A DNA stretch of 64,000 bases from Gordius albopunctatus (lineage: Eukaryota), in the NCBI GenBank assembly GCA_964276515.1, contig OZ193909.1, positions 15,500,001 through 15,564,000 on the forward strand, read 5' to 3'. Made by a program: the position numbers and the translations under genes. The notes below the pieces were generated by a model. It worked only from the letters and a program-made list of their open reading frames with translations, made no database searches and was not told where the DNA came from. Positions 296 through 62,508 of this stretch are shown here, one piece after another. Position 1 is the stretch's first letter; every line of letters begins with the position of its first letter.

Positions 296-2962
296 ATTTT
301 GGCTGTGGTTTGTGTAATAATTTACGGTAAAGTTAGGTACTGCGACCATTTTGGTAAGCAGGATGATATTCGCGTTGCTTCCAGTGGTGGTTGAGGGTGA
401 TATAGGCGATATCATATGGTACAATCAAATGACAGCGTGGGATGGGGGATTAATATAAATTTCGGCAGGAAAAACGATCAAAAAATGACGTTTAATTTAA
501 TATTGACAATAATAATTCGACGACATAATTTATGTGAGTGGGGTGGGCCACAGTTAAAAGAATTAATCAATGAGCACTTAAAGGAATTTTAAGCTAGGCC
601 TTAATACGGCAAAAAATGTGATTTATCGAATTGGTTGGTACAAATAATTCAAACTTTTCCTCAAACCAATAATTGTAAGATTAGTAAAGGGGGAAGGCGT
701 GACAATACCTAATCTTTTAATTCGCATTTAATCTTTTACCCCCATTTTATTCAAATAAATTATTGACATTTTTAACATTTTATTAACAACATCCGACATC
801 CGATCGGGAAATTAAAGTATCAACGAATTTTAAATGATCCATCCATCCTCAATGCTAGTGATCTCGTAAAGATTAGATTTTTATGCCTAAAACTTTTCCC
901 ATTAAATAATGACAGTGACAAGATTTTTTGATGATACGCTCACAAGATTCCAAAGAGTCTATAATTTTTGGGATTAACATTGGGGCACTAAGGGGGGAGG
1001 GAGGGGGCGGGCTTTTGAAATGTTTTTGAATCCAAAGATAACTAGGAGGAGAAATTGTATTAAAGTGACATTTGGATTTTTTATTTGCAAACAAAATCAT
1101 ACATTTGCTGTTAATTATCCTGACAGTGTAAAATAAAATTTGGAATAAGTTACAAAGAAAAGTTTAATTATCGATTTTTAACTACTTAACTACTTGTAAA
1201 AACATATAACTACTTATGTCAAAATTATACAACAAACACTTTGAGCAATTTAGTACTGAAACAATTTACTTTCGGGGCACGCCAAAGTTAACCTTGGCTC
1301 AAACATTACTAAAATTTGTAGAATTCGGACCTAGGATATCGGAATGATACTTTATATGGTCCTTTATAAAAAAATTTAATTGAAATGTTACTTATTTTTT
1401 CTTCGTAATAAGTTAATTTCTAATACCCAATAAATTCATTTCATTTAAATCTTGCATACGGTATGAAAGGTTTGAATGTATGAATCTTGAATCGGCTTGC
1501 ATAAAATAACTGGGCTTTTATTGGGCCTTCTAAACAATTACTATTGTTGGTAAGCGTTTAACAATATAAATTATTCAACACCTAATTTCCTTTGTCAATA
1601 ATTAATTTTTTCCCATAACAAACAACAAGAGGAGACCATGATTTTGCCGATTCCTAGTTAAGCCAAATTTAATGTGAAAGGTAAATAGGTGAGAGTATGC
1701 AGCTACTATTTCTTCAAAAAAGAATCACATTTTATCGAGTAATCTTTAAAGATCTCGGTCACAAATTAAATGTATATATCACAAGGGCTCTTTCATCACC
1801 GCATCATCCAAGGTTAATACTTTAAGTTTTATCGATCAAATGATTTATGGAGGAAGGATGATTTAATATTTTAGTATTGACATATAGTAAATGTATTCCA
1901 TTTTTGATCCAACAATATTTATGCAGGGCATTTATAAAACTTTTTATTAATACTACAACCGTTGACTTATATAAAAGAGTAAATTAAATTGCGAGCCTAA
2001 ATGATAAATCTGCCCCGCTGACACCAAACTACTACTACATTGACGAGTTGTTTTTTGATCTCGCATATACCCTTATGCATCGGTAAAGAGTATTCGCTTA
2101 ATTAAATAGGCTAAATGCTTGTTTTAACTCACCAACTGACTGATTGATTAGTATGGTTGTTGTGAAATATTAAAGGCATGAGTGTCAAAATCACTATTTT
2201 TTTAAATTTATTGAAATTATGGATCGCAAAACATTTATTTATAATCACCAATGCCCTCCCCTCTTTTAGTTTATTCCTTGCTTGCTATGTCAATGATTAA
2301 AGGTGAAATGCAAATTTTTAAATCTAAAAAAAGATATACAATATGCCTGCTTGTTTTTATATAAATAAAATATTGTGTGTATGAAAAATTGAACTTGAAT
2401 TTCCTAACCCAGCAAGGACATAGCATCACACGGTTAAATTAAAACCTATTAGAGGCTCTCACTTATGCCTAATTACTTTAAAAACACAAATTTTTTATTA
2501 TTGTACATAGATTCTAACACTTTTAAATTATTTTTGGCACATGGTTAAATTGATGCCTTTAAGGCTATACATTAGTGTATACATTTCAATTAGTTCATTA
2601 AAATAGTGTGTTGGGCGGGGTGATTTAACAATTTTTTTTTTAAAAATCTAAAGTAAGGTATACAAAGTTATTAGGGTGTTCGAGAGCATAAAATAAATAT
2701 TTAAAGATAGTTTTATAACTTTTAAAATAATATCCAAGATCGAAAACATTATAATCATATTTCACTAAGACCTAAAATACGATATAAATTTCTAAACAAA
2801 ATATCGTCCTCTAAATAAGAATTCTTCCTTAAAAACAAATTAATTTATAAAATTAATATTTAACAGTGTAACAAAAAATGATTAAGCAGTGTAAATAGGT
2901 GATAATTAATACAAACTTTTGCTCCGAGGAAACTGAACCTAAAACGGGTAATGACTCTTTAC

Positions 2963-4387
2963 TAGTGCTGAACGGCGTTCTTTTATTTTTTGGTGAACTT
3001 TGAACGTGAACGCGTTCCTTTTTTTGATGAACGCGTTCGAATTTAACGTTCGTTCAATTTTGAAAACCCTTTTTTATTTTTATTTTTTTGAAAATTAAAG
3101 TTAATCCGAATTTTTAACAAAAAAGTCTTATATTTTTTAATCAGCTGTTTTTCCTGTTTCCTATTAGCGATTCCGAAATACTTTTAACATACTATAACGT
3201 GCAAAGGAAGATAAGAATAAAGTTAATTAATTTGATATTATTAATTATAGTTTAATTTATAGGTTAATATCTAATTCGAGAAAAATTCAGCTTTGTATAT
3301 ATGACGTCATTATTGTATATGCTGCTATAAATTAAACTGGCCGGGAAATGTGCGATATTTTTAAAACGAAAAGGTATTTTAGGATTCTGAAAAAGCTATT
3401 TTACCCCTGGCATCCCTCGGCATCTACGGATAAATTCGCGCGAATCGGGCCGTTAGTTTTAGAATTAAGCTATTTTTTAAAACTAAAAGGTCCATATTTT
3501 TAAAACTAAAAGGAATTTTAGGATTCTGAAAAAGCTATTTTACCCCTGGACGCACTGGGCATCTACGGTTAAATTTACGCCCGAATCGGGCCGGTAGTTT
3601 CAGAATTTAACCTCTTACATACACACATACATACATAGACTTTACTTTATATATATAGATATGGATAATCATAATATTATATCGTCGTCATCTTCAGATT
3701 CTGAATATTCAAAATCAGCAGATGAATTGAAATTGCCATGGCCAAAATATGAAAAATATTTTTCACTCGTTTAATATAAAGGATCGAATTCAATAATTAC
3801 CAAATGTAAAATGTGTCCAAAAAGTATTATCTCTGTCAAGGTGGCCTTGAATTGAATTTCGAGAAAATGAACCTTTAAAGAATAAACTTTTAGTGTTATT
3901 GAAACCCCTAGAATTGATAATGAAAGAGCTATCAATTCCGAGATATCATTTTTTGACGAGGAAGTAGAGGGCGGATGATATCTTGTCGCAATTTTTTGAA
4001 GCGAGGGACAAAACATTAAATGTTTGTAATAAATTTCCTCCTTTAAAAAATTTGTTTATTAAGTATAATACTCTAATCCCCTCATCTGCCCTTTTGGAGC
4101 GGGTTTTTAGTATAGCTAATGCTGTATTAACTGCCAAGCGTTACTCCTTATCAGACGACAATTTTGAAAAATTATTATTAAAAATCAATAAGAAAATGGA
4201 TTATATTGATTTATAATTATATTGTCGAAATAAAACTATTATTTTTTATCATGGCTATTTATCGTATTAAAAAATATAAGAAATTTATTTTTATTAAATT
4301 AAATTTAAAAAAAAATTATCATATAATTTTGAACGAACGTGAACGCGTTCCTTTTTTTCGATTTTTTTACAAATGTTTACAGCACTA
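2963..4387 (+). mobile_element. Internally deleted hAT DNA transposon
   Basis: TIRs TAGTGCTG (2963) / CAGCACTA (4387); 8-bp TSD CTCTTTAC (2955-2962) / CTCTTTGC (4388-4395); subterminal GAACGCGTTC repeats; transposase remnants include a BED-like CKMC (~3805) and a hAT dimerisation-type C-terminus in ORF 3983-4216 (PSSALLERVFSIA...LSDDNFEKLLL). Confidence 0.8.
3300..3659 (-). mobile_element. 5' fragment of a non-autonomous Helitron nested in the hAT element
   Basis: Similar to 18500-18692 (TCTGAAAAAGCTATTTTACCCCTGG block, here internally duplicated; CATA microsatellite); 5' terminus A|TCTATATA on the minus strand. Left boundary approximate. Confidence 0.6.
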
Positions 4388-5267
4388 CTCTTTGCTTATA
4401 TATTCAATCGAATGACAAAAATGTTTTTTATAAACTGCTCTCGAGTATGAAAAATGATGCTATTAAACACGACTCAAAATAAGCCATTATAATTAAAACA
4501 TTCCCCTTTATTAATTAGTAACATATCTAATGGATTCGTGCCCAGTCCATTAGCAATTACATTGACTCTAACTGCGAAAACTCATTTTTCCTTTACTCGC
4601 GGTCCCTCATAAAATTTCAAACACGCTATTTATATCATAAATAAAATCATAATTTTAGCCACACAAAGGATATATTTTTTGCCATTTTAAAGACATTTTT
4701 TGAACAATTGACCATTAGGAAATTAATTTAGTAGCCAAAGTTTACTCAAGCAAGGGTATTGTTGTCCGTAAATATATAAAGGGCACCAAATTTTATTATT
4801 CGATATTAGGTTAACCAAATATAAAATAATTAGTAGTCCCAATTAAGTCAAATTTCTTTTAAGCCCCAATTATATTATTAGTTGTCAATATAATCCCAAA
4901 TGTCCAGCTAGCGGTCACACAATCATCACTAATTGCCTTTTATAATATTAACAACTATTTTAATGGGCTAAAGAGCATTAGATACAAAGGTCACATTTTT
5001 CTGCCCGAACCCGGCCCGGTCCAATTTTTTAGCTAAATTGCCGGCCCAGGTCCGCCCGAACCCTTTTAAGTGTCCACCCGACCTATCCCGAATCATTAGA
5101 GTTGCCCTCACTGCCCGACCCAAAGTAATATTTTTCAAATTTTTACCAGTGATTTTGTTATATACTTGTTTTTAAATTTAATTCTCGATTCTTTTGCATA
5201 AGAATTACGATTAATAAATATTTCAATCAAAAATGTGACAAAACAATATACGAAAAAAATGATACAC

Positions 5268-6852
5268 TGTAATATATATACCGTGATTTGTAATATCAGT
5301 TTATACAATATCTTTTAATCTGCATTCCTTGTGAATTAATAATATATGTTGTTCTAATTATTAATGGATAATAAAATCTGGGAATTTCCTAGTTAGTAAA
5401 TTGGCGCGGTCGTTTTGAAAAAAAAATGGAAGGAATACCTCAATATAAGGCAGGTGATAACATAAATACATATTTGTTCACTCTTGATAATATATTTGAG
5501 TCTAAAAATGTCCCAAAAGAAACTAGAACAAAAACTATCTTGGGTTATATGGGACAGAAAAACGTTGAATTACTGATCAACTTTGTGTATCCAGATAATA
5601 TAAGCTCACTTGAATATGATGATTTAATCAAATTAATAAAGAAGGTATTCCAAACTAAATACACTGTTTTTCAAGCAAGGTTAAATTTTATGAGATGCAT
5701 AAAAAAGGATGATGAATCTTTAATAGAATACGTTACTAGATTAAAAGCCTCTGCTGAGTGCTGTAGTTTTAAATTGTTGGATGAACGATTGCGAGATCAA
5801 TTTTTAAATGGACTGCATAATACACAACTAGAGATAGAGATAAGAACCAAATGGCCGGATGCTGTAAAGCATACAGGACTAGAGGTGACCTTCAATGATG
5901 TTTATAACTTAGCTGAATCAATGCATCTTGCAAATAAGGAGGTTAATTCTTCCTCAAATGAATTAAACAAAATTCAAAATTATAAAAAACCTACTCATCA
6001 AAATAATAGGCAAACAATAAAACAATTTGCTACAAAGAAGGATGAACATCAACAATCATTCATAAGAAATTGCTATAGATGTGGTAAGTCACATGCAATG
6101 AAGCAATGTCCAGCATTTTTAAAAGAATGTTCCACATGTCATCATAGAGGACACTTTGCAAAAATGTGCAAAACCTCAAACAAAGTAAAGCATATCATCA
6201 ATACAATTTGGGTTAATTATGATATAAACAATTTATATCAAAACAAGCCATATATAAGTGTTATAATCAATAATAAGAAATTCACCATGTTATATGACAC
6301 AGGATCTTGTGTATCTCTGATTAACAACAAGATGTACAAAATTTTGAACACACCAATTTTACGTCCTACTCCTGTTTTAAAAGCTTATGGAAATCATACA
6401 ATACCAATTAATGGAGAAACTTTACTACAGGTATGTTGCAATAATAAAATAATGAAATTACCTGCTGTTGTGACAACTTCAGATGAAGAACCTATTTTTG
6501 GTTTAAATTGGATGCAGGCTTTTAACCTAAAACTTCCTCATCAAGTTAAGATTAATGCGATAGAAGAAAAACCTATAAAAATAGAAGAGGAATGGGTTGG
6601 AAAGTATACCAACGTGTTCAGTGATGGCACTGGCTGTATTAAAGACTATGAGGTAAATCTTTTTGTAAAGGAAGAAGCCAAAGCCATAGCATTTCCTGCA
6701 CGAAGAGTTCCTTTTCCTTTAAGGAAGAAAGTTGAAGAAGAAATTAAAAGATTATTGGATAAACTGATATTACAAATCACGGTATATATATTACATTTCT
6801 CCCTATTTTAAATGTGAAATTCCTCGTAGAACCGTACAGGTGGTTTTGACGT
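5268..6852 (+). mobile_element. Truncated, rearranged Gypsy LTR retrotransposon (5' LTR, PBS, gag-protease, inverted 3' end)
   Basis: LTR starts TGTAAT at 5268; PBS-like TGGCGCGGTCG at 5402; inverted copy of the LTR start, PPT and integrase end at ~6760-6852. It sits inside a CCCG-rich MITE (~5001-5130 and ~6865-6945). Confidence 0.85.
5426..6811 (+). CDS. Gypsy Gag (two CCHC-type knuckles) + aspartic protease, truncated before RT
   Basis: CYRCGKSHAMKQC...CSTCHHRGHFAKMC knuckles; LYDTGS protease; IFGLNW; ARRVPFPLRKKVEEEI pre-RT motif; the last ~17 aa derive from the inverted LTR. Confidence 0.85.
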   Translation: MEGIPQYKAGDNINTYLFTLDNIFESKNVPKETRTKTILGYMGQKNVELLINFVYPDNISSLEYDDLIKLIKKVFQTKYTVFQARLNFMRCIKKDDESLIEYVTRLKASAECCSFKLLDERLRDQFLNGLHNTQLEIEIRTKWPDAVKHTGLEVTFNDVYNLAESMHLANKEVNSSSNELNKIQNYKKPTHQNNRQTIKQFATKKDEHQQSFIRNCYRCGKSHAMKQCPAFLKECSTCHHRGHFAKMCKTSNKVKHIINTIWVNYDINNLYQNKPYISVIINNKKFTMLYDTGSCVSLINNKMYKILNTPILRPTPVLKAYGNHTIPINGETLLQVCCNNKIMKLPAVVTTSDEEPIFGLNWMQAFNLKLPHQVKINAIEEKPIKIEEEWVGKYTNVFSDGTGCIKDYEVNLFVKEEAKAIAFPARRVPFPLRKKVEEEIKRLLDKLILQITVYILHFSLF

Positions 6853-7917
6853 AAAAAATCTCATTGAGCCCGAATTGCCCAAATCTTGTTATGGTGCCCG
6901 CCCAGGCCCGCCTGAAAGTCTAATTTTCCGACAGTTGCCGGAAACCTTACAGAGGCATATAAATATTTATCACTCAAGTTATTTTGTTTTTAAAAATAGT
7001 CAATAAGTTCTATAATTTACATTGAATAGGCCTAAAAAATATTTGGTTTTGAAAAACATGTCTTATTGATGTGAACGTGATCTACTGTTCAGTTGGACCG
7101 GATCAAGCAAAAAAGTCTCTATTTTGGTCAGAACCTAAAATTTTGAAATTGGCACACCTTTAGCAATAGAAGGTAATAATAATTGGAAATGAAAATTTAT
7201 ATTAAAATCTAACTAATAAAACACCCATTATGTTATCACTCCTAAAAATGATATATGAAGGAACAGGCTAGATGTAAGGGAGAGAAGTTTTCTGTCACTC
7301 GGTTAACACAACTTAGCATCTAAATTCTGTCATAATAATATAAGGATATATATTAAACAAAAATGTCTTTTTGGGGCTACTTGATGATGTTTAAAAATGT
7401 AAACTTCCAGGTTTGCATCACAAGTTCAAGGATAAAATAACATGGATCCAAAAAATTGACTGATTTCTAGGTTTTTAGCTATATATACAAGTAAAAAATT
7501 AACTCACAAACATAATTAGTTTTTTTCCCAGAAAATCCGGTATAATGTATTTAAATTATTTCGAAAATGCTAAAAAAAAATCAAAGAAAATTTACTAACA
7601 TTTTATAAATTATTATACGATAAAAAGTTAAACGAATAAGTAATTTCATATTTTTGAAAAGCTTCAAACCTGGGTGAGGCAATTAGGTAAGAGCTATACC
7701 ACAACAGAGGATAAAATATTAACGAATTAAAAGTAGGAAAAATAGGAAGTGTCAGACCAATTAAGGCTTTTTGTCAAGTGGTATAGGGTTTATCACACAG
7801 TTTGAGCAATTTACTCAATTAAGGAAAATTTTTAGAAAAAAGTAGTTAAATAGATATGCTTAAAGTGACATATTTAAAAAATGGGCTTTATCCTATGGTA
7901 ATGGAGGCCTTTTACTT

Positions 7918-8490
7918 CTTTTTTTTGAATTGACATGCTTTATTATAAAAAGTATTAAATATATAGTGTAATTAAAAAAAAAGATACAAGAACGAAAACA
8001 TTAAAAAAAACGATTAAAACACATTATCCGTTTCTTCATCTTCTTTAAGAATGGGCATTGAGTCCATCAAAGAATAGAAATTGGATTTAGCGATCGCAAT
8101 GGCGATTGATTGTCTTAGTAAAAAACTATTCGATATTTTTGAAGGAGGCGAGCGTTTATTGAGTTCTTTAAAAAAATTTAATGCACTCTTCCCAAACGTC
8201 CCTGAACACGACGAGACGATAGGAATAAAAATGAAGGTTTCTGATGAAGCTGAGTATTTTAAGGATGTCGTGAGTATCGTTGGAGGGGGCAAACAGGTCA
8301 ATACAGGTGTAGTCCCATTTTAAGAAAAGGCCTTTGTCCCATGGGATAAGTGACGAACCGTCAGGGCGCATCCACTCTTCGAGAGAGGGATCAGACGGTT
8401 CAAGGATGGAAGGAACTTTTGCCCGTTTGAGGGCAGCTTGAAGCAGTGTATTTATTTTTTGGTGCCTACTATACCGGCTTTTGTTAAATT
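7918..8490 (-). mobile_element. 5'-truncated CRE-like (RLE) non-LTR retrotransposon with a long TSD
   Basis: RPDGSSLIPWDKG..WDYTCIDLFAPS restriction-like endonuclease motif; AATAAA and poly(A) at the 3' end (T run ~7919-7927 on +); 45-bp direct repeat 7873-7917 / 8491-8535 with 2 mismatches. Confidence 0.8.
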
Positions 8491-10238
8491 TTTAAAAAAT
8501 GTGCTTTATCCTATGGTAATGGAGGTCTTTTACTTATATAAGGGTATGTCATAGTGAACAGGTAAGCTCGGCAACAAAATAGTATATTACGTGTTTAAAA
8601 GAACTTTGAATTTAAATTTTACCAAACTAAGACAAGCGTGACTTCTTAAAGGCCGATTTGCTGAAGGCATAATAAAACAACGCATTCTGAAAATCATAAA
8701 TATATTGGTGGTTAATCAAAGAGCATTTTATTAAACGAATAAACATCGGATTACAGGGCATTTTATAGACCTTCTTCAAATATAAACATTCCCTTGGTCA
8801 ATTAGTATATAGTGTTCAGATGGAAAGAGGATCCCCGGGAGCTAAATTTTGAATCAACTATAACACAATTAATATAATTGATCTTCAAATTTCTTAGACA
8901 TAAAAACTCACTTTTAGTTTTGTTACGTTAGTTGCTATATTAAATACGTTATTTGATTCAAGTTAGATATATTGATAATTATAAATACCCCAAAATTTTT
9001 ATTAGTTCAAGTGGCATGGGACAGCAATCCCCTGATGGAAAGAATGTAAACACATTAGCAAATAAATTTTTAATGAAGTTATGCTGATTTATATACCTTT
9101 CAACATATTTAGTTAGATAAGAGTATGAAAGTAAAACAAAGGTAATTTATTTAAATGCTGGTTCTAAGTAACAAGTTAAAAGATATTTTTAAGCCTTATT
9201 CAATTATAAAAAACTATGCCCTACCTAACCGTTGTTATGTCTTTCATAAAAATCTAAGAACATTTTAATAATGTAAAGCGTAAAAGTCGTTTAATCCATG
9301 ATTAGTCATGATTTATAATAATAACAAAATTCCATTAAATCTATCAATCTTGCTACCATCTATCCGTCCATTAAGGATTACCTTGGTTTTTATTCAAATG
9401 AATATGGTTCTAATAATAATATTTGATTTAAGACATTTGGTATATTCATAAAATTATAAATTCAATAAATAGTGCTCTTTAATTTTGTTCTTTAATTATA
9501 TACCATAATAGTATTTTGGCAAATAAAATATATAACTTTTTAAAATTTTAACAATTAAATTCAATAATAAAGTAAAAGTGTTTTATCAAGTAAATAAATT
9601 TGCCGACTATAACGTGTAATTTATTCACTTTAAGCCAAAGAACAGGTAAGGGCTCATTTATAGCTAACGCATTATACACCAAGAATGTTCGGCAATTTAA
9701 TCAAATATGAAAATAATTTTAACCAGAGTGCCATTCATGAGAATAGCCAGGATATGGCTTACAAGGCAGTTCGCTAGAAAAGGGAGGGGCAGCATAATAA
9801 TAAAAAAAATAATTCAACTTCAATTAATCTTTAAGAAGTTTCAGACTTGAGGGCCCGTCTTAATATACGATTCAACTTCAAGCGTCATATTTTTGTTTTG
9901 TCTAAATATGCGATATACATATACATGTCGTGGAATCAACAATTTTAGTTTAGTTACCATATGAATAATATGCATTAATAAGCGTAATTAAATGATAAAT
10001 ATTTGTTTTACGAGCAAAAAAACAAAAATAGAAAAAAATGAGGTGACGCTCGTATTAAGACGCGGCTATGTTCTAACATGCATTCGTTTTTTTGCATCTA
10101 TGCAAAATCGCATTTTAAGACGCACCCTATGGAGGGGGCGGCACTGCCTATCCTTGTCGGCTATGTCCATACTCCATAGTGCCCTTAAATAACTTAAACT
10201 CGAACGCTTTTAAACTTATTAAGTTAATAAGTTATTTT

Positions 10239-10667
10239 CATAGGCGTAGGCAGGGGGGGGGCGGCCGCCCCCCCCCCCTGAATGAGAATTTTTCTATTTT
10301 TTAATGTAAATTTATGTAAAAATTGGAAAAAATTAGTGTTTCGCCCCCCCCTGATTGAAATTAAGTTTTATGTTGAAAATTTTATTTCACGAACTTTTGA
10401 CGCAAATTTAAATTATATAAGAATTAAATATTGAGATTAGTAGTTGCGTTTGTGTTAGTTCCTTCATACATCGTTTACATATCCTCTGTACACTGTACTG
10501 TTGATTAATAATGAGTTTTTATGTGGGTTGAGGCCAAAGAATAGCAAAATATTTTAATTACTAACGTTAAATACCAAAAAAAGGTCTTGGCGACCTTTTT
10601 TTTCACTTAGTCTCGGCGATTTTTTTTACTCGCCCCCCCCCTGATCCGAAAGCTGGCTACGCCCATG
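10239..10667. mobile_element. hAT-type MITE
   Basis: TIRs CATAGGCGTAG / CTACGCCCATG; perfect 8-bp TSD GTTATTTT (10231-10238, 10668-10675). Confidence 0.85.
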
Positions 10668-10734
10668 GTTATTTTTCACTTTTTACAATGCTATTCCTCG
10701 ATATTACTAATTTATTAGAAATTTCACCTACAAC

Positions 10735-11814: not shown

Positions 11815-14312
11815 TCTTCTTCTTCTTCTTTATCGTGTTGAAAATGCCACAGACGTGGGGTACGTTTTCAGCAGCCTCTTCCATCTGAGTCGCGTAAATG
11901 CCATGCCAATTTCCATCTGTTTGACGTCCATATCCTTTTCGACCAGTCGGTTCCAGGTGGCACGTGGTCTGCCCCTTCCTCTTCTTCCAGGCACTTCCAT
12001 CTCAAGCGTTCGCCGTGTGACATCGTCTTCGCCTCTTCGTAATACATGGCCGTACCACCGCAGTCGATTTTCTCTTAAGAAGTCCTTCGTCGCTTGTATA
12101 CCCATCTTTGTCATCAAGGATTCGTTCGTCATGCGATCCAGCTTGGTGTAGCCTAAGCTCAATCGCACCATTCTCATTTCCGTAACTTGCAAGAGTTTCT
12201 CCTCCGCGGTGGTTACAGCCTATGTTTCGCTCCCGTAAAGCAAGACCGGTCGCACGATGGTTTTGTACGCCTTGCTTTTCAACCAAATTGGTATCTTTTT
12301 GTCACACATGACACCGGAGATGCTGCGCCACTTGAGCCACGCTTTCTTGATCCGAGAATGGACTTCGGCGGTACATCCTCCCTCTTGATATAATAGCGAG
12401 CCAAGATATGTGAACTTATCAACCTCCGTGTACATTGGACCGTCATTTTTGTGCATTTGCGGACTAACGCCCATCGTTTGCATGTAAACCGTTTTCTTCT
12501 CGCTGACCTTTAACCCGAATTCCGAAAAACGTTCTTACCATTTTTTCGCTTGATGAAAAACCTCTTCTCTTGTTTCATCGCATAGGAAAATATCATCGGC
12601 ATATAGCATAGTCCAAGGGGCTGGCTTGTGCAAGTCCTTTGTTATTTTATCCATAATTAGATTAAACAAGAATGGGCTTAACGCTGACCCTTGATGTAGT
12701 CCAATCATTACTCGGAAGGGTTTCGTTTCTCCTACGGTAGTCCTAACAGATGCAACCGCGCCATTCTACATTTCCTTGATAAGTCGAACATATCCTTCGG
12801 GTATATTTCTGGCTCTAAGGGACCACCATATTAAGTCTCTCGGAACCGTATCGTAGGTCTTTTCTAAATCGATGAAGACCATGTGTAAGTTCTTTCTTAT
12901 GTCGCCATATTTTTCCATCGTCCGCTTCAACGCAAAGATTGGATACATCGTTGATTTACCGGCCACGAATCCAAACTTATTGGGCGAGAGACAAACTTCG
13001 TCATTGAGCCTTTTCACTAGCACCCTTTCTAGTAGTTTTAGTGAGTGGCAGGTCAACTTGATACCTCTAAAGTTGCCACATTCCTGCGCGTCTCCTTTGC
13101 CTTTGTATATGTGTATGATCGTACTTTCCCTCCATTGGTCAGGGATACGACTCTCATACAGCATAGCGTTAAATAGGCCTGATATTATGTCGATTCCTTC
13201 TCCTTTGCACCCAAGCCAAGCTTCGATCGGTAAATCATCGGGACCTAGCGCTTTCCCTTTCCGCATCTTCGTTAGTTGCGCTCCTACTTCATAAGCCTGC
13301 AATGGTAAAACTAAGTTCGAGTTCGGTTCCACCCTCTCTAGCGGTCTTCTATCATTCGTTTTGTTCATCATATTTTGGAAATAATCTTTCCATCTTTTGA
13401 TGACTTCCTTCGGTTTGCACAACGTTCGCCCCTCTTCGCTTTTAATGACTTTCAGTGTCCTGACATCTCGACTTTTTTCTTCCCTAATCTTTGCTACATG
13501 ACTATGTCGCCGTCCTTGGTATCGAGCTTGTTTGCCATCTCGGTGTAAGCCTCGTTCTTCGCTATCGCAACCGCTATCTTAGCTTTGCGTTTCGCTTCAC
13601 GATATGCCACGTAGTTTTCTCCTTTCTTCGTTTTGTACCATCGTAGGTACAACGCCTTCTTTTCTTCTATAGCCTCTTTGACCGAGTCATTCCACCACCA
13701 TAGTTCACGCTTGTGAGCTCTGCCGCCCTTAGATAGTCCCAAGATTTGAAAGGCCGTTTCCTTTAAGACATTTGCAACGGTTTCCCACCTTTTTTTAATG
13801 TCGCCCCCCAAGCTTGCAACCTTCAAGAGCGGAGTTGCTCGAGCGTGAAACATTTCATTTGCACGATCATCCTTAAGCTTTTCGTACTTTGTCCTTGGTG
13901 TGTAGACTTTTCTCCTTACGGGAAAAATCTTTCTTGCTATATCGAGGACAACTGGCCGATGTTGTTTGGCGATTTCTTCCCCCGGTATAACCTTGCAATC
14001 TTTAACTTGCCACAAATTTTTGCGCTTCACTAAGATGTAGTCGACCTGTGTAAGGTGATCCCTACTACTGTACGTCGCTAAATTTTCGGTACGCTTCTGA
14101 AAGAAGGTATTCACAATGGCCATATCATAAGCTTGCGCCATCTGTAGTAACTTCTCTCCCTCTTTATTTTTCACCCCGCGGAGGCGCACCTAAGGGTCGC
14201 AACGTCAAAAAGGGCGCGGCCCCTGCCAGGGGTTAGAAAGCGCCTCCACAAAGCAGCAACAAACTGGGAGTTCGGGCCCGATGGCTTACCGACTCCCAAC
14301 GGTGACAAAGAT

Positions 14313-16146
14313 ATGGCTTCCCCCACGTGGCTTAAAAATGTTTTTCATTTTCTTAGGGAAGCGCGACGCATCATCTTTTCACCGCCCAAGGACGACGATC
14401 CGAAGCTGCCGGACACACCACCGTCCACTCCGCCGCCACAAAACGACGCTCCACCATCACCCACTGAGTCGGAACAACGACTCAAGGACGCCGAACCTTC
14501 CCTCGTCCGGGACGCGGGATCGGGACAAATCCGGTCCCTGATACAAGCACACAAAGTGCTATTCGGCTGGAGTAAAGCGTCAACCACTGCTAAACCAAGC
14601 GGGAGTCTCGACATTAGAACTTCACGCCTCACACCACACGACTTAATGTCACCGTTTAGCAAGAAAGTAGCCACCTTTGGCTACAAGGCCATCCTGGATG
14701 CCTACAACATCCGGCTGAATGGGGGACTGATACAACCCCCTAAATCGAAGAGGTACTCAAAGGGACCTCCGGCCTACTTTTCGGAAATGCTGAATGCGGG
14801 TATTGTATCTAGGACAGCGAAACTCCTTATCCGCTCCGCCACCTTCTTCATCGCCAAGCCGAACGGGGATGCTAGGGTAATCACTGATTTGTCTCATGCT
14901 TCTAGGAATTTTCTGCCAAAACCCTTAAAGCTAGCAAACATACCGCTTACCGCCAAACACCTAGGCAGCTAAAGTAGACTTCAAGGCTGCGTTCTTCTCT
15001 ATACCCATCCACCCCAGCACCAAGAAATACCTGGGGTACGTTTGGAAAAGAAAGCCCTACGAATAGAACGTGCTGCCCATGGGGGCCTCTTTCTCCCCGT
15101 TCGTGCTACAAATGATCATCAGCGATCTAGCAAAAAAGGCTGTCAAACGCTCCAAGTATAACGTATACCTGGACGACCTACTAATCTATTCTCCCGAATA
15201 CGACGACGTCCAAGAAGACCTCGAAAGTCTAGCCGACTTAGCTAAAGCCTGGGGACTCACGATCAACGTTAGCAAGTCCTCTATTATGCCGTCTCATCAC
15301 ATCGAGTACCTTGGTATGGAGCTTAAACTCGACGTCTCCGCAGTAAAATGCAAACCAGGAACGGCTGATCGACTCCAGATCGCGGCCGACATCCTCTTTC
15401 TAGCGCTCACACGAGACGTCCCCACAAACACTCTGCTCGAAGCGCTGGGCATCCTTAACTACTTTTTTTATAATCTCACAGGCATGTCTAAACTCTTTTC
15501 CAGCTTCTACAGCCTCACCAGAGATAACCCCCCATGGTTCGATAAAAGCCTCGCCGCACACAAACTCATGGGTATTCTAAAACTCACGCACGAAACCATA
15601 CCACTCTGGGTTAAACCCTCCAATGTCGTCTACGTAGACGCATCAGGCTCGCACATCGGGGTATCAGATGATTACGGCGAACACTCAAACAGCTTCCAAA
15701 ACGCAGCAGCCTTCCTGGGGTGGAAATGGAGGGAACCATACCACATCACCCTGTCAGAAACGGTCGCCGTCCTGTACGGATACGTCCGATCTTATCTTAG
15801 TGGGCACGATCACCCGAAACTGTTCACGGACTCAGCCACGGCATATTACGTGTTGAAAAAAGGGGGATCAAACTCCCCGGTTATCGAAGAAGTCATAGCC
15901 ACCTTCGTCAAAACATGGGGCATCAAACACCTGCTCAACATTCACTTTAACCTCTCTTGGATCCCCACACACCTAAACCCGGCTGACCACCCATCCCGAG
16001 TATGGGCTCCCGATCAACCAGACAGGGAACAAACAAACACCGATATCGATTACGTTCTCCAGCAGGGACTCCCCGAAGAAGGCGATATCGACTTGGGTTT
16101 TTGGGAAAACGAAATACCGGTCGAAATAGTCGATCTAGAACCCTAG
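14313..16146 (+). pseudogene. RT-RNase H polymerase, hepadna/DIRS-like; one frameshift and two in-frame TAG stops
   Basis: ORF 14313-14972 gives FFIAKPNGDARVITDLS; after a frameshift near 14960 the frame reads *AAKVDFKAAFFSIPIHP...YE*NVLPMGASFSPFVLQ...YLDD...IEYLG; RNase H D-E-D-D set: VYVDAS, LSETVAV, FTDSAT, WIPTHLNPADHPSR. Confidence 0.85.
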
Positions 16147-16165
16147 CAAACCCTACGCATCCAGG

Positions 16166-16378
16166 TATAAATACACCCGTCTGCCCTCCGGGTATCACTT
16201 GTTTGTTTTCCTAAGTGACACCCTCCTCACCTGTTTCGCCCGTCTTGTCCCCAAGCCTATTCCCCAAATTTCGTTTTCTGTACACACCATGATTTTCTTA
16301 CTTATTCATGTACGCGATTTTGCACCGCCTTCTTATACTTTTTACAAATAGTTTATTGCGTCGATTCGCGTGAATAAA
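16166..16378 (+). promoter_or_regulatory. Putative TATA + initiator + poly(A) signal cassette downstream of the Pol ORF
   Basis: TATAAATA at 16166-16173; TCACTT with the A at 16197 (31 nt from the TATA start); AATAAA at 16373-16378. Confidence 0.45.
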
Positions 16379-17048
16379 AGGCCCCTAGCGAAAGTTTCTT
16401 ACGAAACGCCTCTTTCTTTCCCAACGTGCCCATTAAAGTCTGCTCCGATGATGCATTCTCGTCAGGCTTCACGTAGCGTATTTCTTTTTCGAGCTTCTCA
16501 TAGAATTCGTCCTTCTCATTTTCGGAACATCCAACCTGGGGCGAATACGCACAAATAACATTGACAAGGCCGCCTTGATCCGCCAGCTTTATGCACATCA
16601 ATCTATCTGAGCATCGTTTGACTTCGACTACCTTGTCCTTAAAGGAATCGCTAAGCACTATACCTACCCGGTTCTTCCGTGATGGGGAACCCGAGTAGTA
16701 TAGCTTGTAACCATCTCCTAGCTCCCTGGCTTTTGTTCCATGTCACCGCGTTTCTTGTAGACACGCTATGTGTATCCTTCGCCTTTTTAGCATCTGTGCA
16801 ACCTCGATGCCCTTCCCCGTCAGCGTGCCCACATTCCAGCTGGCCACTCTTGTCCGTTCGACAACTAGATTCCTTAACCGCCTTCGTTGTGAGTGAGGTG
16901 GTGACCGTTGTATACTTTTCACATTGCACGGACGGATAATGCAATGCGCGTCGTTTGGGGAGGACGCCCTAGCATTCTGGTATAAGTTCATGTTTGTAGC
17001 TGCCATGGTGTTTGGAGTTGCTTTTTTTACAGCCGGCTTCCAACCTGA

Positions 17049-17098
17049 CGCTAACCTTCCACTATTTTCACACGGACTTGGGACCGTCGTTGTATAGT
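17049..17098 (-). ncRNA. Twister-ribozyme core (3' cleavage-product side) at the RTE 5' end
   Basis: Minus strand ACTAT-AC-AACG-ACGG-TCCCAAGT-CCGT-GTGAAA-ATAGT-GGA-AGG-TTAGCG fits the twister P2/T2/P4/L4/T1 layout; the UAA cleavage strand is absent. Confidence 0.65.
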
Positions 17099-24240: not shown

Positions 24241-24282
24241 ACGACGGTCCCAAGTCCGTGTGAAAAAAGTGGAGGGTTGGCG
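24241..24282 (+). ncRNA. Partial twister-ribozyme core at the second RTE 5' end
   Basis: ACGACGG-TCCCAAGT-CCGT-GTGAAAAAA-GTG-GA-GGG-TTGGCG; the 5' P2 strand is missing. Confidence 0.55.
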
Positions 24283-25625
24283 ACAGGTCGGAAACCGGCT
24301 ATAAAAATCAACTCCAAAATTATGATAATTTCAAGCAAGATTTTACAAGAAAAGGCTAAGGCGTCCTCCACAAACGACGCGCACTGCATAACCCGCCCGT
24401 GCAATGCAAAAAATACACTAGGGTTACTGCCTAACTCACAACGAAGGCGGTTAAGGAAACTAGTTGTGGAAAGAATGCGAATTACGTGCTGGAATGTGGG
24501 AACGTTGACGGGGAAGAGCATCGAGGTCGCACAGATGCTGAAAAGAAGAAAGGTACACATCGCCTGCCTACAAGAGACGAAGTGGAACGGAAAGAAAGCT
24601 CGGGAATCAGGAGAAGGATACAAGCTTTTCTACAATGGGTCACCAATTCGTAGAAACGGGGTCGGTATCGTTCTAAGCGAATCTTATAAGGACAAAGTGT
24701 AAGAAGTCAAGCGTTGTTCCGACAAGCTAATGTGGGTGAAGATCGCAGATCAAGGGGGCTTCCTAATCGCCCGAAACTAGATGTTTGGAATCAGAAAAAG
24801 ACACTTCTTCGATTTATTGGAAAAGGAAATACAAGGAATAGGACAGGAAGAAAGGCTAATTATTGGGGCAGATTTCAACGTTCACGTTGGGAAAGATCGC
24901 CTCGGGTATAACGCAATGATGGAGGCTATGAGCATGGTTTTAAGAACAAAGAAGGGGAATGACTTCTTCAAGTATCCCAAGCATATGACATGGCGATCGT
25001 TAATACCTATTTTCAAAAGCGCGAGAATCATATTGTGACCTATAGAAGTGGGAAGTATTTCAGTGAAATCGACTATTTGCTTATACGGCGAAATGACTTA
25101 GGTTGCGCAACGGAAGTCAATGCCCGGATCCAAAAAGGATGGCATAAATGGCGAAGTATATCCGGTGTAATGTGCGACAAGAAAATGCCAATATGGTTGA
25201 ATAGCAAAGGTTACAAATCCATCGTAAGACCGGTGTTACTCTATGGAAGGGAAACATCGACATTAAACACCACGGAAGGAAAGCTATTACTCTACAAGCC
25301 ACGGAGATGAGAATGATACGGTGAAGCTTGGGGTATACTAAGCTCGACCATACGACAAATGACTTTCTCATGACAAAAATGGGTATTCAACCTATGGCGG
25401 ACATGATTAACGAAAATCGGCTAAGGTGGTATGGGCATATACTAAGAAGAGACACGGATGACGTAAATCGAAAAGTAATGGACATGGAGGTACCGTGGAA
25501 GGGCAAGTCGATAAAGTTATGGAAACTAAAGAGATTATTCAAGGCATGGCACTCACCCGGTCAAGATGGAAGAAACTTATCAAAACAAACCCCACCAATG
25601 GGAGAAGAAGAGGAAGATAAAATTT
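24241..25625 (+). mobile_element. Internally deleted RTE-clade LINE, same family as 11815-17098
   Basis: Shared 5' end; APE motifs (CWNVGTL, ACLQETKW, GADFNVHVG, EIDYLL) fused near 25098 directly to the post-RT region (EVNARIQKGW); RLRWYGHILRR; GAA-rich tail. Confidence 0.85.
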
Positions 25626-31670: not shown

Positions 31671-34600
31671 TTATATATTAATAGAAATTTTGCAGGAAAT
31701 TTTTGTAGCAGAAGAAGACCCAGCGGTGGTAGGGCGATGCTTTTTAGATGAGGTTTTGATGGCATTTAACAAGGCTTTCGAATTTTTGGACAATTTTGTT
31801 TTGGGTTTGGTTGTTGGTAATATATCGCGACTCTGTATACTTTTTCGTTTATCCCTTTGATTTTCCGTGCAATCTTGAAATGAAAAAAGCACACGATTGC
31901 GACATTACATACAAAAATGTTGGATAATAAATTTAATTTAAAAGATGCGAATTGGTGATGTATTTTTAAAATAAAACATCTAACTCAAAACTAATACGTG
32001 GATTAAATTAAAAACACACCTCTATATATCGAGGTATAAATAAGAGTGTTAATTCTATATTTCTTGGAAAAACTTTCAACCCTTATTCCGTTCGACTTTT
32101 AATTGCTATATTTTTGAATTTCAATGATTTATTTCCGCACTGGGCAATAAATAATGGACTTATAGAATGGCCGGCAAACTGTTTGCAAATTTTTGTAGAG
32201 TTTTTTACGGTGAACACGAATATATTTTAAATTTTCCCGTATACGTAATTTTTTGAAATATATGCTGTCAAAGTTGCTAAAAACAGCAATTTTACCGTTT
32301 TTTAAACGTCAATAACTTGCAAATTAGGCGGTAAAAATGTTGTCTAATAGATTTAATACGTAGAGATAGAGGAGAGGAATGTATTTACAATTTTTTTATC
32401 GTATCACCTTTACTTTTTAAATTATATACAAAATTAATTATCCCTACTATCTTTTACATTGACAAATTACACCAGACTTGAGGGCGCCCTCCCTTCTCTT
32501 CAACACTAGGAATTAAGTGCGTGTTGTTGTTTTGGTAATAGTAGTAGTAGAGTAGATAATTAATTTTGTATATAATTTAAAAAGTAAATGTGCTAGGATA
32601 AAAAAATTGTAAATACATTCCTCTCCCATATATCTACGAATTAAATCTATTAAGCAAAATTTTTACCGACTAATTTGCAAGTTATTGACGTTCGAAAAAG
32701 GCTAAAATCGCGTTTTTGTCAATTTTGACAGCGAATATATAAAAAACTTGACGTATAGGGAAAAAACTAAAAACATATTTGTGTTCATCGTGAAAAACTC
32801 TACCAGAATCTGCAAACAGTTTGCCGGTTGATTTTTCTTGTTGAACAGTGTAATTTTTAAATCCAAAATTAATTAAGTATTTTTCTACATTAAACAGAAA
32901 ATCAGTATAAAATTTTAAAATCCAATCAAACTTTTATCAATGGCTCTATGCCTGCACATTAATTCAATATATTTTAACATTTATCTTCATAATGAATTGG
33001 AAGTAAAATAAATTCTCTTTTTAAAATTTTTTTAATGTAATTACCTCATCCAGCCCCTGGCTTTTAAATACATCATCCAAAAAGTTTAATTCGTTTAAAT
33101 AACAATTTACAATAAAATTTTAGAGAAAGTGTAGCCTACCCTTTCTAGAATTTTGCAGTATCATTTTTGCTAGATAGTCGTCTTTCTTCAGCTTATCAAC
33201 TATAGGTATACTAAGGGCAAATTTATCTTTCAGCCCCTCCTTTTCCTTGGTTTTTGCTATATCTTCTTTTTTAGCTTTCTAAATTTCATACATTTTATTG
33301 CATACATATAGCCTAGGCAATAACCGAAAAGAATTTATTTCTTGAAATATTAATAATAATAGTATTCCAAAATATCTAAAAGTTTTTAGTATCAAAATGT
33401 AAATTATTGGCCAGCGTTACCCCGCGTTAGTGATGAGTGATGACGCGCGAAAGCGAAAAAAAGCCAAGTGAATTTTTGTGCTAATTTATCTGACTTTTCA
33501 TTATTTTTCTTAATATCTTCATATTCGTCGTGAATTTTATCATATACACATCACGAAAATAACAATTGTAAATAGGAGACGGTGTTCATAGTGAAACCGC
33601 AGACCATCATTTTCGCCCGCGGCAAAAAGCGAACGAAAATAAGGTACAAATCATTTTTCACTTTTCACGCATTTTTTATATAATTGTTGTATATGTTTAT
33701 AGAATAATTACGATCTTGTCAATGAATACCATTGATATATGATAAATTTCACGGCGAATATAAAGATATTAATAAAAATATAGATAGTTTGATAAATTAG
33801 ACCAAAAAATCACTTCGCTTTTTTTCGCTTTCGCGCGTCATCACGAACGCGGGGTTATAAAGTCATTTTTCATCCAGTTTAAATAAAAGCAAAAAAATCT
33901 CCAATTTTTTACATTAAACAAAAAATCGCTGGATCCAGGGTTCTGTATAGGCTCATTAATTATAAATATTTTTAGCGTGTATTTTAGTGATTATTTTAAA
34001 CGCGTATTAAAAAGTGTAAATTAAACGAAGGATAAATGTGCATTTAAAAAAACAAATTCGCTTTTAATCGATAAACTTAAATAGTAGAAAAGGGGTAAAA
34101 ATACAATATAAGAAACTATTTTAAAAATTCATATGTAAAGTATTTATCTTAAATACGCTAATTTACCAATAAATTTTAAAAATAAGAATATATTAAACCC
34201 GAAGTGTATCACGCATTTTTTTGTTTTGTGCAAAGTCGTCTTCCCAAAAACTCGATTGAATTTCGATCAACCTTTCCATGTTAGGTTTAAAAGCCATCTT
34301 TTTGCCTTCATCTTCAATTACTCTCTCCAATTTATACATGGAATCTTGCTCCATACGTGCATGCTCTTTTTTTTCTAATAAATTTTTAGGAATAGGCAAA
34401 TATTGTCAATTTTGTAATTTTAAAAAAAAATAATTTCTGAATATTTAGCATAAATTAGATACAAAATCAAATTTGTCATAGCTTTTTAAATATTAGATGA
34501 CGTATAAAGGAGAAATTTCATTATGATTAAGTATAGTCATTGCGAGAGTATAATATTTTTTATTTATACAATCTCGTGGGCATAGCCAGGATTCTTATCA

Positions 34601-37568: not shown

Positions 37569-40500
37569 CTAAAGGGAATCAATGTTATGAAGGTTGCTGA
37601 TGCTAACGCTATTAAATGCGTGATCCATAGGAGAAAATCCACGGAAGTAATTTTGGCAATAAGGGATGTCTTCTAAATCATACAAGAGGAAATAAATCTA
37701 ATTACAGACTTAAAAATATGAACAATTTTGAATCAATTCAATATATCCATTAATTACTCTACACTCTAAAATTAAAAAATCTTTATATTACCCTTTGTAA
37801 ATTATTGTCGAATTATATTTGTACACTTTTAATTCGGTCTAGGACACTTTCTAGTTGAGTAGTTAATAAAATGTTTGATCAAAATTAACATTTCTCATAT
37901 ATTTTATAATGAATTTGAGATCGTTTTTAAAAAATAATTCAACTTAATTTATGAGATAAATATTAGATAAAATTAATTTGATTTGCTATTTATAAAAGAT
38001 TTTCACACAAAGTTTTTAGTTAGCAAAAAATACTTGTCCAAATAACAAACTGAAAATTTACCAATTCGATACTTAGCGCTAAAGCTCCTGGTTGGTAGTT
38101 CGGTTGTGTTGGGGTTTGAATTATCTGTATCGTTTTGAGCCAGGTTTATCCGATATAAAATTAACATCTCGGAGCCGATTGATTTAAATAATTTATTAGC
38201 TGGCAGGTCATACCCGCATAGCCTAAAAAATATTTTAGACTACAAAGACTACTGTAAATTAATCGCTGAAAAGAATATTAAAACCCAAAAGCTTCAATAG
38301 GCATTACCTATTAAATTTATAATTTAAATAAACATACGCTATGTGCCAGTCTATAAAAAATAATCCACATCTTCACATAAGAACTTTGTGACCCCAACCC
38401 TTAATTTGACAAAACATTATGATAGAGAATTTTACCCTGATAAATTATGTGTCTTCATGGGCTAAATGACGAAATTTTTTTTCAATGCAAAAACCCTTTA
38501 AAATTAAAAAAATTAGGTTTTGCCCCCCCCCCCTAATCCAAAACCTGTCTACGCCCATGTGTGTCTTTAGTTTTTTTCTAAACTAGTGTGGAAATGGCCC
38601 TTTTAACGTTTTTCACTCTATTTTACTTTTTTTATTAACTGTTATATGATCTTATAGATCATTGATTAATCTACAGAGCTATAATAATATTTCATCAACT
38701 TCACTTATCCGTGTTATTTTGAACCCCTTCTCCCCAACTCCTCTCAATTTGTCTGGAGAGTATTTATACGATGTTCATTCCCATGCCCTCACTCTCTCCC
38801 TCCACTTACTTTCTCTCAATCTCCTCTAATGCTGCCCCTTGTGTGCTTTGCTAGATATGGGGTCGGGGCGATAATGGAAGTAAGATGAAAGAGGGGAGAG
38901 CGAATGAAATGTTAGTAAGCATCGCATAAAGCACCCTTTTTGCCAGAACATAAAAGGAGGAATTTTAGTGAATAATTTTAGAGCCCTCTAGATTAATCAA
39001 TGATCTAAAAGGTTGTATGACTATGAATAAAAATAAACTAAAAATAAAAAAGTAATTTGTTTTTATAAAACTTAAAATTGCCTTTTTTAACCTTTATCCT
39101 CATTTATCTAAAAATCTAAGCCAATATTCAAAGAATAATTTAAAATTAATTTCAATCAATATATGCGATTAAAATATATATGATAAAGTTTATGCCTGGC
39201 GCCAGTCAGGGATAAATCAGCATTGGTCCGAAATTCAATCCAATTCAAACATCTAATACCATCTTCCGCGATACCTCCTATACTAACTTGGATAACTTCA
39301 AGATGTATAAGCTGACATGGGAGAGCCTCAATATTAAATACACAAAAAATTTTTGCTTTAATTTAAGTGAAATTATATTGTCATTAGCTTAAATTATTAT
39401 AAAAATTACCTAAAAAATTTAAACTTAATTCTAAATTAATTATAGTTGATCTTAAAATAAACTCGGGCCTTCGGCCCTCGTGGGAAGGGGGAAGGGGAGG
39501 AGGGGAAGGAAGGGGGAACTCATCTACACTCCGTATAAATGTATCATATTTGCTATGCAATTTATGGAAATACTTACGTGAATATTGCAAAACGAAGGTT
39601 GGAAGCACTAAATAAGTGTATATGCCAAATATCATAAAGGGGGAGAGAGGGAGCGAAGGGGAAGCTTTATGGTTAGTTAAATTCTACGGGAGTTGTATTA
39701 CCAAAAAGTCATAATAGCAATGGTAGGAACAGGAACAATCATAATAGTCAAAAAAAACGAAAAAAATAATTTCGATTCACATTTTGGCCAATGGTCATTT
39801 TTTTCCATTGGTCAGCAGCCAGGACACGGTAAAAGTGGATATAAATTCATAACAGTCAAAAAAAAAATTTTCGAATCACATTTTGGCCAATGGTCATTTT
39901 ATTCCATTGGTCAGCAGCCAGCGGACGGCCAAAAAGTCATAATAGCAATGGTAGGAACAGGAACAATCATAATAGTCAAAAAAAACGGAAAAAATAATTT
40001 CGATTCACGTTTTGGCCAATGGTCATTTTTTTCCATTGGTCAGCAGCCAGGACACGGTAAAAGTGGATATAAATTCATAACAGTCAAAAAAAAACGAAAA
40101 AAAAATTTTCGAATCACATTTTGGCCAATGGTCATTTTATTCCATTGGTCAGCAGCCAGCGGACGGCCAAAAAGTCATAATAGCAATGGTAGGAACAGGA
40201 ACAATCATAATATTCAAAAAAAACGAAAAAATAAACTCGGATACACATTTTGGCCAATGGTCATTTTTTTCATTGGTCAGCAGCCAGCGGACGGCCAAAA
40301 AGTCTTATTATCATTGATAGTAACAAGAACAATCATAAGAGTCAAAAAAACTCCGGGATTCTAACCCAAAAACTAGATAAATTGCATAGCAATTATTAAA
40401 AAGTATAGGGTAATTATCAATGTTAACCTATTCAAAAACGAACAAAAAATTTTGATTTATTTGGCCAATGGTAATTTTTTTCAATTATCAATGTTAACTT

Positions 40501-53599: not shown

Positions 53600-54525
53600 A
53601 TAATGTCCAATGCTATTGTCCATATTTGTTTTTTGTTTAATATATTTTTAAATAAAATTTTTGAAATGTATTTGTAGTGTTTTATAAAAATCTATCGAGT
53701 TAGAATATTTAAATTTCTTTCGAATCGAATCCAAATCTTCAGTTTATTATTCGACGAATATCGATCGAATCTAAGATTCGAAATCCACAGGCGTAAAATA
53801 CTAAAAATCGCATTAATATAATATATTTTAAAAAATATACTCATAAAAAGACAAAAATTGAAAATAAAAATATTAAAGGCGAACAAATTGGTAAAATATC
53901 GATGTGGCCAGTTTTTGTTTGCTATATAAAAAAAACTTTCACAATTATCACAGGTAGCATTATTCGACAATTCATTATATGTGAAATGGTCCCAAACTAT
54001 TAAAAAATTTTCTATTCCGTTCAAATTATATTATTTTTAGTTTAATAATAACATATATGTTAAAGTATAAAGGATAAGTAAAAAAGTAATATAAAACATT
54101 AAATAACGATTAACAATGTTAGAGAAAATAGTGACATTTTTTGCAAGTTGAAACTTATATTATATGCAAAAAACAATTTTTTAATATATTTTGTGTATGT
54201 TATGAAATTTAAAATTTTTGATAGTGAAAATAACTAATTTGCGGGAAGTTAAAAACAGCTTAATTATACTAGTCTGTCTGGTATACTTAAATTAAATTTA
54301 AAGTATATAATTTTTCGAATCCTATAGATTCAAGTAAATATTCAAATCCTAATTTATACATAGGGATTCCGTCGAATCAGAACCGAGTCAAGAATATTTC
54401 CTAGAGACTTAACACAAAATATTATATTTGAAGACAGAAATAAATTTATTTTTGGCATTTGTAAAGACTCTGCTATTTACGAAGGATAAAAGTTGAATGT
54501 TAGGCAAACTACTAGGAGGGAGAAG

Positions 54526-62507: not shown

Positions 62508-62508
62508 C

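Follow-up and report, generated by a model that had tools for sequence, protein, structure and literature searches.

In the 64,000-nt stretch of DNA that we analysed as a whole (the window), a broken polymerase (Pol) gene is directly followed by what look like a promoter and a poly(A) signal, and the question raised by this locus is which kind of template would place such elements behind, rather than before, the gene. The initial annotation answered it with a complete 2.2-kb circle that had been opened just past the poly(A) signal.

The cassette downstream of Pol

Pol ends at a TAG (16144-16146). Only 20 nt further on, a motif scan identified the TATA-like box TATAAATA (16166-16173), a putative promoter element, followed by an initiator-like TCACTT (16195-16200) whose A at 16197, 31 nt from the start of the TATA-like box, is the predicted start of transcription. 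An AATAAA (16373-16378) lies 227 nt past the Pol stop and, together with the 26 nt that follow it, reaches the right end of the insert, where the transcript would be cleaved (16373-16404). All these elements are on the forward strand, as is the stretch between them, which is T-rich and A-poor (38% T and 17% A from TATA to AATAAA). It contains several indels of 1-3 nt among the copies present in the contigs of X1 and X2, and is therefore non-coding; it is the predicted terminal redundancy (R, 16200-16372). X1 and X2 are two DNA-like runs from one organism and study that are not independent of each other, and one of them may be the source of the window.

The positions that the initial annotation gave for the TATA-like box, the initiator, the AATAAA and the arms of the hairpin discussed below are all exact. 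In addition, 14100-16500 contains a single TATAWAW and a single AATAAA. There is thus no comparable cassette 5' of the ORF, just as had been claimed, and the corollary that this cassette could serve as the promoter of Pol only if there is a second copy, or a closed or tandem template, is in our judgement likewise right. In 20,000 dinucleotide shuffles of positions 16147-16404 (258 nt), TATA alone was found in 7.4%, AATAAA alone in 6.5%, TATA plus an initiator at a spacing of 26-34 nt in 0.2%, and the ordered trio in 1 of 20,000, a figure that is generous since the motifs were selected after inspection of the sequence. Across the AT-rich window, the same trio is present at three places on the forward strand and at none on the reverse strand. 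We regard the promoter-like and poly(A) motifs as real, and consider it likely that they serve a larger, probably circular, template. The layout alone, however, is not diagnostic of a circle, because the arrangement of a promoter and then a poly(A) signal downstream of pol is found in 3' LTRs as well as on circles. What stands of the annotated circular layout is the look of the cassette and its avihepadnavirus-like order; this order is equally standard in LTRs, in which TATA, initiator and AATAAA follow each other with an A-poor stretch in between (PMC3601003, in part).

Folding also bore out the claim of a hairpin with one mismatch that spans the predicted start (16190-16223, forward strand). 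Its arms, GGGTATCACTT (16190-16200) and AAGTGACACCC (16213-16223), give -12.8 kcal/mol and a z-score of -2.9 (3 of 200 shuffles) in a 46-nt segment drawn around the hairpin itself, and most of the contig depth has a different base at position 16214, which breaks one loop-side pair. We rejected this hairpin as a 5' epsilon because its 5' arm precedes the predicted start and an RNA beginning at 16197 would lack it, so that the structure could form only in the read-through (3') copy or in DNA. RNAs starting at 16197 fold like their shuffles (z +0.99, -0.05 and +0.50), with no epsilon-like fold beyond shuffles after this position; nor was there an Rfam match, or did the scanned parts of the insert ends contain convincing DR1/DR2-like repeats. 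The left end of the insert (14178-14300) folds better than its shuffles (z -2.7; 3 of 200).

The ends of the insert and the 2.2-kb circle

The insert interrupts a LINE on the reverse strand (about 12000-17090) that has frames for an endonuclease and an RT and that we take, from its motifs, to be of the RTE type. Translated frames place the 3' part of this LINE, with the remainder of the endonuclease and the RT, at 12000-14177 and its 5' part at 16406-17090. A LINE allele without the insert exists, as shown by a joint from 14176 to 16423 in the X1 and X2 contigs, and the LINE letters on both sides of it in these contigs indicate that the insert replaced about 31 nt. The match to other copies spans 14178 to 16404; it is followed by one extra A, and the LINE resumes at 16406. 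The junctions of the window copy show no target-site duplication. This copy also has no TG..CA end (CA is absent from 16378-16410) and no polypurine tract, its longest purine run being 8 nt and lying inside Pol, and no repeats of the ITR/ICR or split-direct type were found inside the insert. A distance of 26 nt past AATAAA is the usual one to a cleavage site, and the right end of the insert may thus indicate that the molecule that was captured had the same 3' end as the RNA. Elsewhere in the window (24241-24759) there is a 76% identical fragment of the 5' part of the same LINE, which does not cover the insertion site.

Other copies of the element overrun both of these ends. Before 14178, four contigs of X1 and five of X2 continue into one shared sequence that is not part of the insert, including, in X2, the contig with the greatest depth at the left end (2,398, record 9). 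Behind 16404, three contigs of X1 and one of X2 continue into a shared sequence unlike the left end of the insert. Comparison by eye of 30 letters of each overhang showed no overlap, and the missing part of the element is therefore at least about 60 nt long, and probably much longer. In addition, there is an open Pol frame right from the left junction. The window copy is therefore incomplete: the insert (14178-16404, forward strand) represents part of a longer element with RT and RNase H that exists in multiple copies, and it has been cut at both ends.

These results contradict the proposal of a complete 2.2-kb circle. A joint from 16404 to 14178, which the initial annotation had expected in other copies, is absent among the joints listed for the X1 and X2 contigs (15 of 22 in one comparison and all three in 15900-16440). 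The order of the cassette, the right end 26 nt past AATAAA and the absence of a target duplication would all suit such a circle. We nevertheless regard it as very improbable, because copies extend beyond both ends with sequence unlike the opposite end, the Pol frame runs open into the left junction, and the 15 joints listed of 22 include none that closes it. With regard to membership among circular genomes of 3.0-3.5 kb, closure at 2.2 kb is what the X1 and X2 contigs contradict. The backward joint expected of a split repeat of the B1-A2-B2 type is also absent from the three joints in 15900-16440. The loose ends of contigs, 12 of 76 of which were listed, leave room for varied host flanks before the cassette.

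Pol, its copies and its relatives

Pol (14178-16146, forward strand) consists of a proline-rich N-terminal part, RT, RNase H and an acidic tail. The stop is where the initial annotation had placed it, but a frameshift near 14960-14972 and an in-frame stop at 15064-15066 disrupt the frame. The RT, with a conserved N-terminal block and YLDD (14643-15324), is supported by Pfam RVT_1 (E 3.5e-17) and by the alignment with proteins of Gordionus sp. described below. The RNase H (15625-15999) is recognised by this alignment, by the motifs D-A-S, E, T-D-S and NPADxPSR (here a terminal NPADHPSR), and by weak Pfam matches to RT_RNaseH (E 0.03) and DNA_pol_viral_C (E 0.1). The frame then continues for 48 acidic residues (16000-16143), after which there is no integrase, recombinase or methyltransferase. 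Besides Pol, no ORF of at least 90 codons lies over the RNase H or downstream of it, so an integrase or recombinase is absent from these parts; more generally, the 2.2-kb insert contains no integrase, tyrosine recombinase (YR), methyltransferase or hepadnaviral terminal protein. A recombinase upstream of the RT/RNase H, as in VIPER/TATE, is possible. As for a DDE integrase, Pol stops 48 residues past the RNase H and its RT is not Copia-like, though an upstream Copia-type integrase is conceivable by sequence. The terminal protein profile PF00242 gave no match at E values up to 10, with both controls (P0032 and P0115) matching; this result covers Pol from 14178, and the start of Pol may lie upstream. 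BLASTP found no similarity between Pol and P0115 or P0032. In the atlas search, a hepadnaviral Pol cluster appeared only at 0.79, which is a lead, next to unnamed or RVT_1 clusters; the PDB search gave weak RT matches only, and the single-sequence structure prediction (pLDDT 35) was unusable. Another frame, open for 115 codons (14194-14538, forward strand), Arg/His-rich and without a Pfam match, overlaps the N-terminal part of Pol and may represent the end of a capsid- or gag-like gene located upstream.

X2 contigs that differ by 9-15% from the window copy have depths of about 2,250-2,400 over 357-392 nt, compared with 71 for the X2 contig that shows no difference from it. According to the warning attached to these values depth is not copy number, and we did not take depth profiles as copy counts; they would suggest tens of near-identical copies, or else episomal DNA. 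Summed X2 depth is about 5,000-10,700 over 16090-16279, against 2,900-3,700 over 15900-16089. This rough doubling over the cassette may weakly point to two cassette copies per element; a raised depth is also expected from diverged subfamilies or overlapping contigs. Among the differences listed (40 of 455 and 40 of 94), third codon positions account for 29 of the 39 located in Pol up to 16000 (p 2e-7) and for 12 of the 22 in the tail. Judged by these codon positions, purifying selection acted on Pol while the copies diverged, and the excess in Pol indicates that the spread of the family involved replication subject to selection.

Searched in full with HMMER, 1.84 billion representatives yielded 307 matches, two of them below 1e-30 and both 37% identical to Pol. 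These two, XP_065317776.1 and XP_065315139.1, belong to a horsehair worm, Gordionus sp., in which 11 entries on five chromosome-scale contigs, annotated only as uncharacterized proteins, are the only close relatives that were found. The Gordionus proteins share the N-terminal block and, where they are long enough, the acidic tail (P0002, P0003 and P0151). Word-index protein searches with the C-terminal piece of Pol returned nothing at near or longer lengths, and single-protein locus searches detected no relative in viral or metagenome contigs.

For phylogenetic placement, the references were 13 hepadnavirus records, 120 metagenome loci with an RNase H motif and the HMMER matches. By way of a 171-row FastTree, 46 rows were hand-picked from about 250 proteins and locus ORFs and analysed with IQ-TREE over 396 RT and RNase H columns. 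P0089 and P0093, in which the catalytic motif was not located, were left out, as was P0114, a long, non-homologous row that had been grouped with the family by FastTree. The window and Gordionus proteins form one clade (100/100) in a basal polytomy. This clade lies outside the Blubervirales (100/100), a HEART-like core (96/81), a wider set of 19 rows that holds both (84/97) and a DIRS/YR set (91/96). The label of the HEART-like core rests on how P0120 resembles, by eye, the tick HEART rows that have been published, the published HEART sequences themselves not being in the tree, and that of the DIRS set on a motif after the RNase H in six of its eight rows and a Dam match in one. AU tests rejected neither a position as sister to the Blubervirales (p 0.237) nor one as sister to the DIRS/YR set (p 0.358). 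On this tree, the window element is best regarded as an unplaced lineage among virus-like retroelements.

The best metagenome locus, L062 (25% identity), was considered as a relative and did not group with the window family. On its 3,007-nt contig (48-2857), a 205-codon ORF overlaps a 790-codon RT-RNase H ORF and there is no recombinase; it is another unplaced lineage. P0120, P0030, P0047 and P0163 are HEART-like Pol proteins without a terminal protein on contigs of 3.0-3.8 kb, a size close to one genome unit in the relatives of hepadnaviruses. The unnamed P0032 and P0115, on contigs of 3.0 and 3.3 kb, combine terminal protein, RT and RNase H and resemble proto-nackednaviruses and nackednaviruses; P0032 extends 400 residues past the RNase H.

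Known systems and rival explanations

HEART elements are reportedly the hepadnavirus-like retroelements of arthropods described by Gong and Han in 2018, and are defined as genomic RT-RNase H elements without integrase, recombinase or terminal protein. The 2.2 kb of the window insert agree with this definition in all three absences. Further likenesses are a genomic Pol with RT and RNase H, about 600-700 aa long, a low-complexity N-terminus and an end soon after the RNase H (PMC12691608 and PMC12440569, both in part). On the other hand, the tree places the window family apart from the HEART-like core, and the family has YLDD and an acidic tail, whereas tick HEART rows have YIDN or HLDN. With the Blubervirales the insert shares RT followed by an RNase H with a terminal NPADxPSR, a promoter and poly(A) signal just past the stop of P, the lack of an integrase and an integration that resembles end joining. 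In the avihepadnavirus-type records L004 and L007, two of the five checked, AATAAA is located 242 nt past the P stop, compared with 227 nt in the window; it is at +290 in L001 and absent in the remaining two within the up to 420 nt that follow the stop. For the proto-nackednaviruses, a TATA box, a poly(A) site and a short redundancy are described (PMC12691608, in part). Unlike the Blubervirales, however, the insert contains no terminal protein, spacer or core gene, an epsilon-like fold or a DR was not found in it, and it lies outside their clade.

The order TATA, initiator and AATAAA after pol is also that of a 3' LTR in LTR retrotransposons (Metaviridae, Troyka, Kuafuorterviruses), from which the window element differs in having no protease-RT-RNase H-integrase Pol, polypurine tract, TG..CA end or target duplication; a 100/100 branch divides its family from the integrase-bearing outgroup rows. 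DIRS, PAT, Ngaro and VIPER/TATE elements have an RT/RNase H of the DIRS grade, as the window element does, and this can be their final ORF; the difference is that the 2.2 kb of the insert contain no recombinase, methyltransferase or repeat structure, and that the family is placed outside the DIRS/YR set. Circular intermediates have been proposed for tyrosine-recombinase retrotransposons. In VIPER/TATE, gag and YR precede RT/RNase H as the third ORF, the direct repeats are split, and TATE occurs in tandem (PMC6681497, in part). The closest likeness of all is that to the Gordionus proteins, with 37% identity over RT and RNase H in addition to the shared block, tail and clade.

The explanation to which we give close to an even chance is that of a larger pararetrovirus-like unit that makes a terminally redundant RNA and enters chromosomes by break repair. 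The 3' cassette would then probably be the single promoter and poly(A) region of a larger unit, circular or head-to-tail. Transcription would begin near 16197, read past AATAAA once, continue through the missing part, which probably holds a capsid- or gag-like gene, and then through Pol, and end near 16404, giving an RNA with a terminal redundancy of about 200 nt. Pol would copy this RNA into DNA, and end joining might now and then insert linear products at chromosome breaks, as has been proposed for the capture of hepadnaviral linear DNA in the case of endogenous copies (PMC2946954, in part). The start site, the RNA ends, the priming and the circularity of the larger unit are what we infer here. 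Several lines of evidence support this larger circle: the overhangs in nine contigs on the left and four on the right; the absent target duplication and the loss of about 31 nt of LINE, which is the pattern of end-joining capture (PMC2946954, in part); the absence of an integrating enzyme in or after Pol, of LTR marks and of a backward joint; and the distances of TATA (20 nt) and AATAAA (+227) from the stop, which are close to those of avihepadnaviruses. Against it count that no read or contig closes a circle, that X2 depth is higher over the cassette (weakly), that many copies, together with 11 Gordionus relatives on five contigs, look like a transposon, that no terminal protein, no epsilon-like fold after the predicted start and, in the insert ends scanned, no DR1/DR2-like repeat was found, and that the tree places the element outside the Blubervirales.

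It is also quite possible, if somewhat doubtful, that the cassette belongs to a repeat, LTR-like or split direct, of which it forms the 3' copy, that a recombinase or other integrating enzyme is encoded in the missing upstream part, and that the window copy was 5'-truncated and captured by break repair. The textbook LTR order with its A-poor stretch (PMC3601003, in part) would fit such a terminal-repeat or recombinase element, as would VIPER/TATE, with RT/RNase H as the last ORF after YR and split direct repeats (PMC6681497, in part), the many copies, the higher cassette depth (weakly) and the AU test for the DIRS/YR set. Yet the window copy has neither TG..CA end nor polypurine tract nor target duplication, the joints in 15900-16440 include no backward one, and the methyltransferase-like tail of DIRS1-type rows is absent. 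Moreover, the recombinases that Pfam detected in nine of the 34 neighbour ORFs scanned at metagenome loci belong to loci whose three tested members form a separate 100/100 clade. We think it unlikely that the window copy is a retrocopy, that is, a polyadenylated RNA of the element that was reverse-transcribed and inserted in 5'-truncated form, in which case the cassette would not address the topology of the template. The right end at the predicted cleavage site with one extra A, the 5' truncation and the abundant LINE as insertion site agree with it, but there is no poly(A) tail or target duplication and there is a target deletion. Besides, a retrocopy explains the ends of the window copy and not the replication of the family, and it fits the larger circle and the terminal repeat alike.

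In its furthest form, the larger circle would make this family an undescribed animal reverse-transcribing lineage, shared with horsehair worms, that has a hepadnavirus-style circle and a terminally redundant RNA without terminal protein, integrase or recombinase, and that is intermediate between retrotransposons and Blubervirales, recently active and possibly episomal. We consider this rather unlikely as a whole. If true, it would offer a direct handle on the movement of HEART-grade elements. The mobilisation of HEART elements, and the replication and genome entry of integrase-less hepadnavirus-like retroelements in general, are described as unresolved (PMC12440569, in part), and HEART elements are the proposed source of proto-nackednaviruses and hepadnaviruses (PMC12691608, in part). 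The assets of the family are its clear promoter and poly(A) cassette, the signs that Pol was selected, what seem to be tens of near-identical copies, and the presence of relatives in the chromosome-level assembly of a horsehair worm. A recombinase element would still be a new animal lineage, of modest interest. Our literature search found no description of such a horsehair-worm family; Repbase, the original HEART paper and the figshare supplements lay outside this search and may catalogue it. The available text of the Gordionus genome preprint, whose repeat table is an image, mentions neither DIRS nor retroelements.

The window contains several other repeats. Two related Gypsy-like elements (5418-6811 and 56212-59862) are 85% identical in gag-protease, the second including RT and integrase. 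Long imperfect inverted repeats of 75-80% identity are present at 60626-64000, 46905-47554 and 32171-32827, and a family of 128/238-nt tandem units is common to 39701-40554 and 51946-53600.
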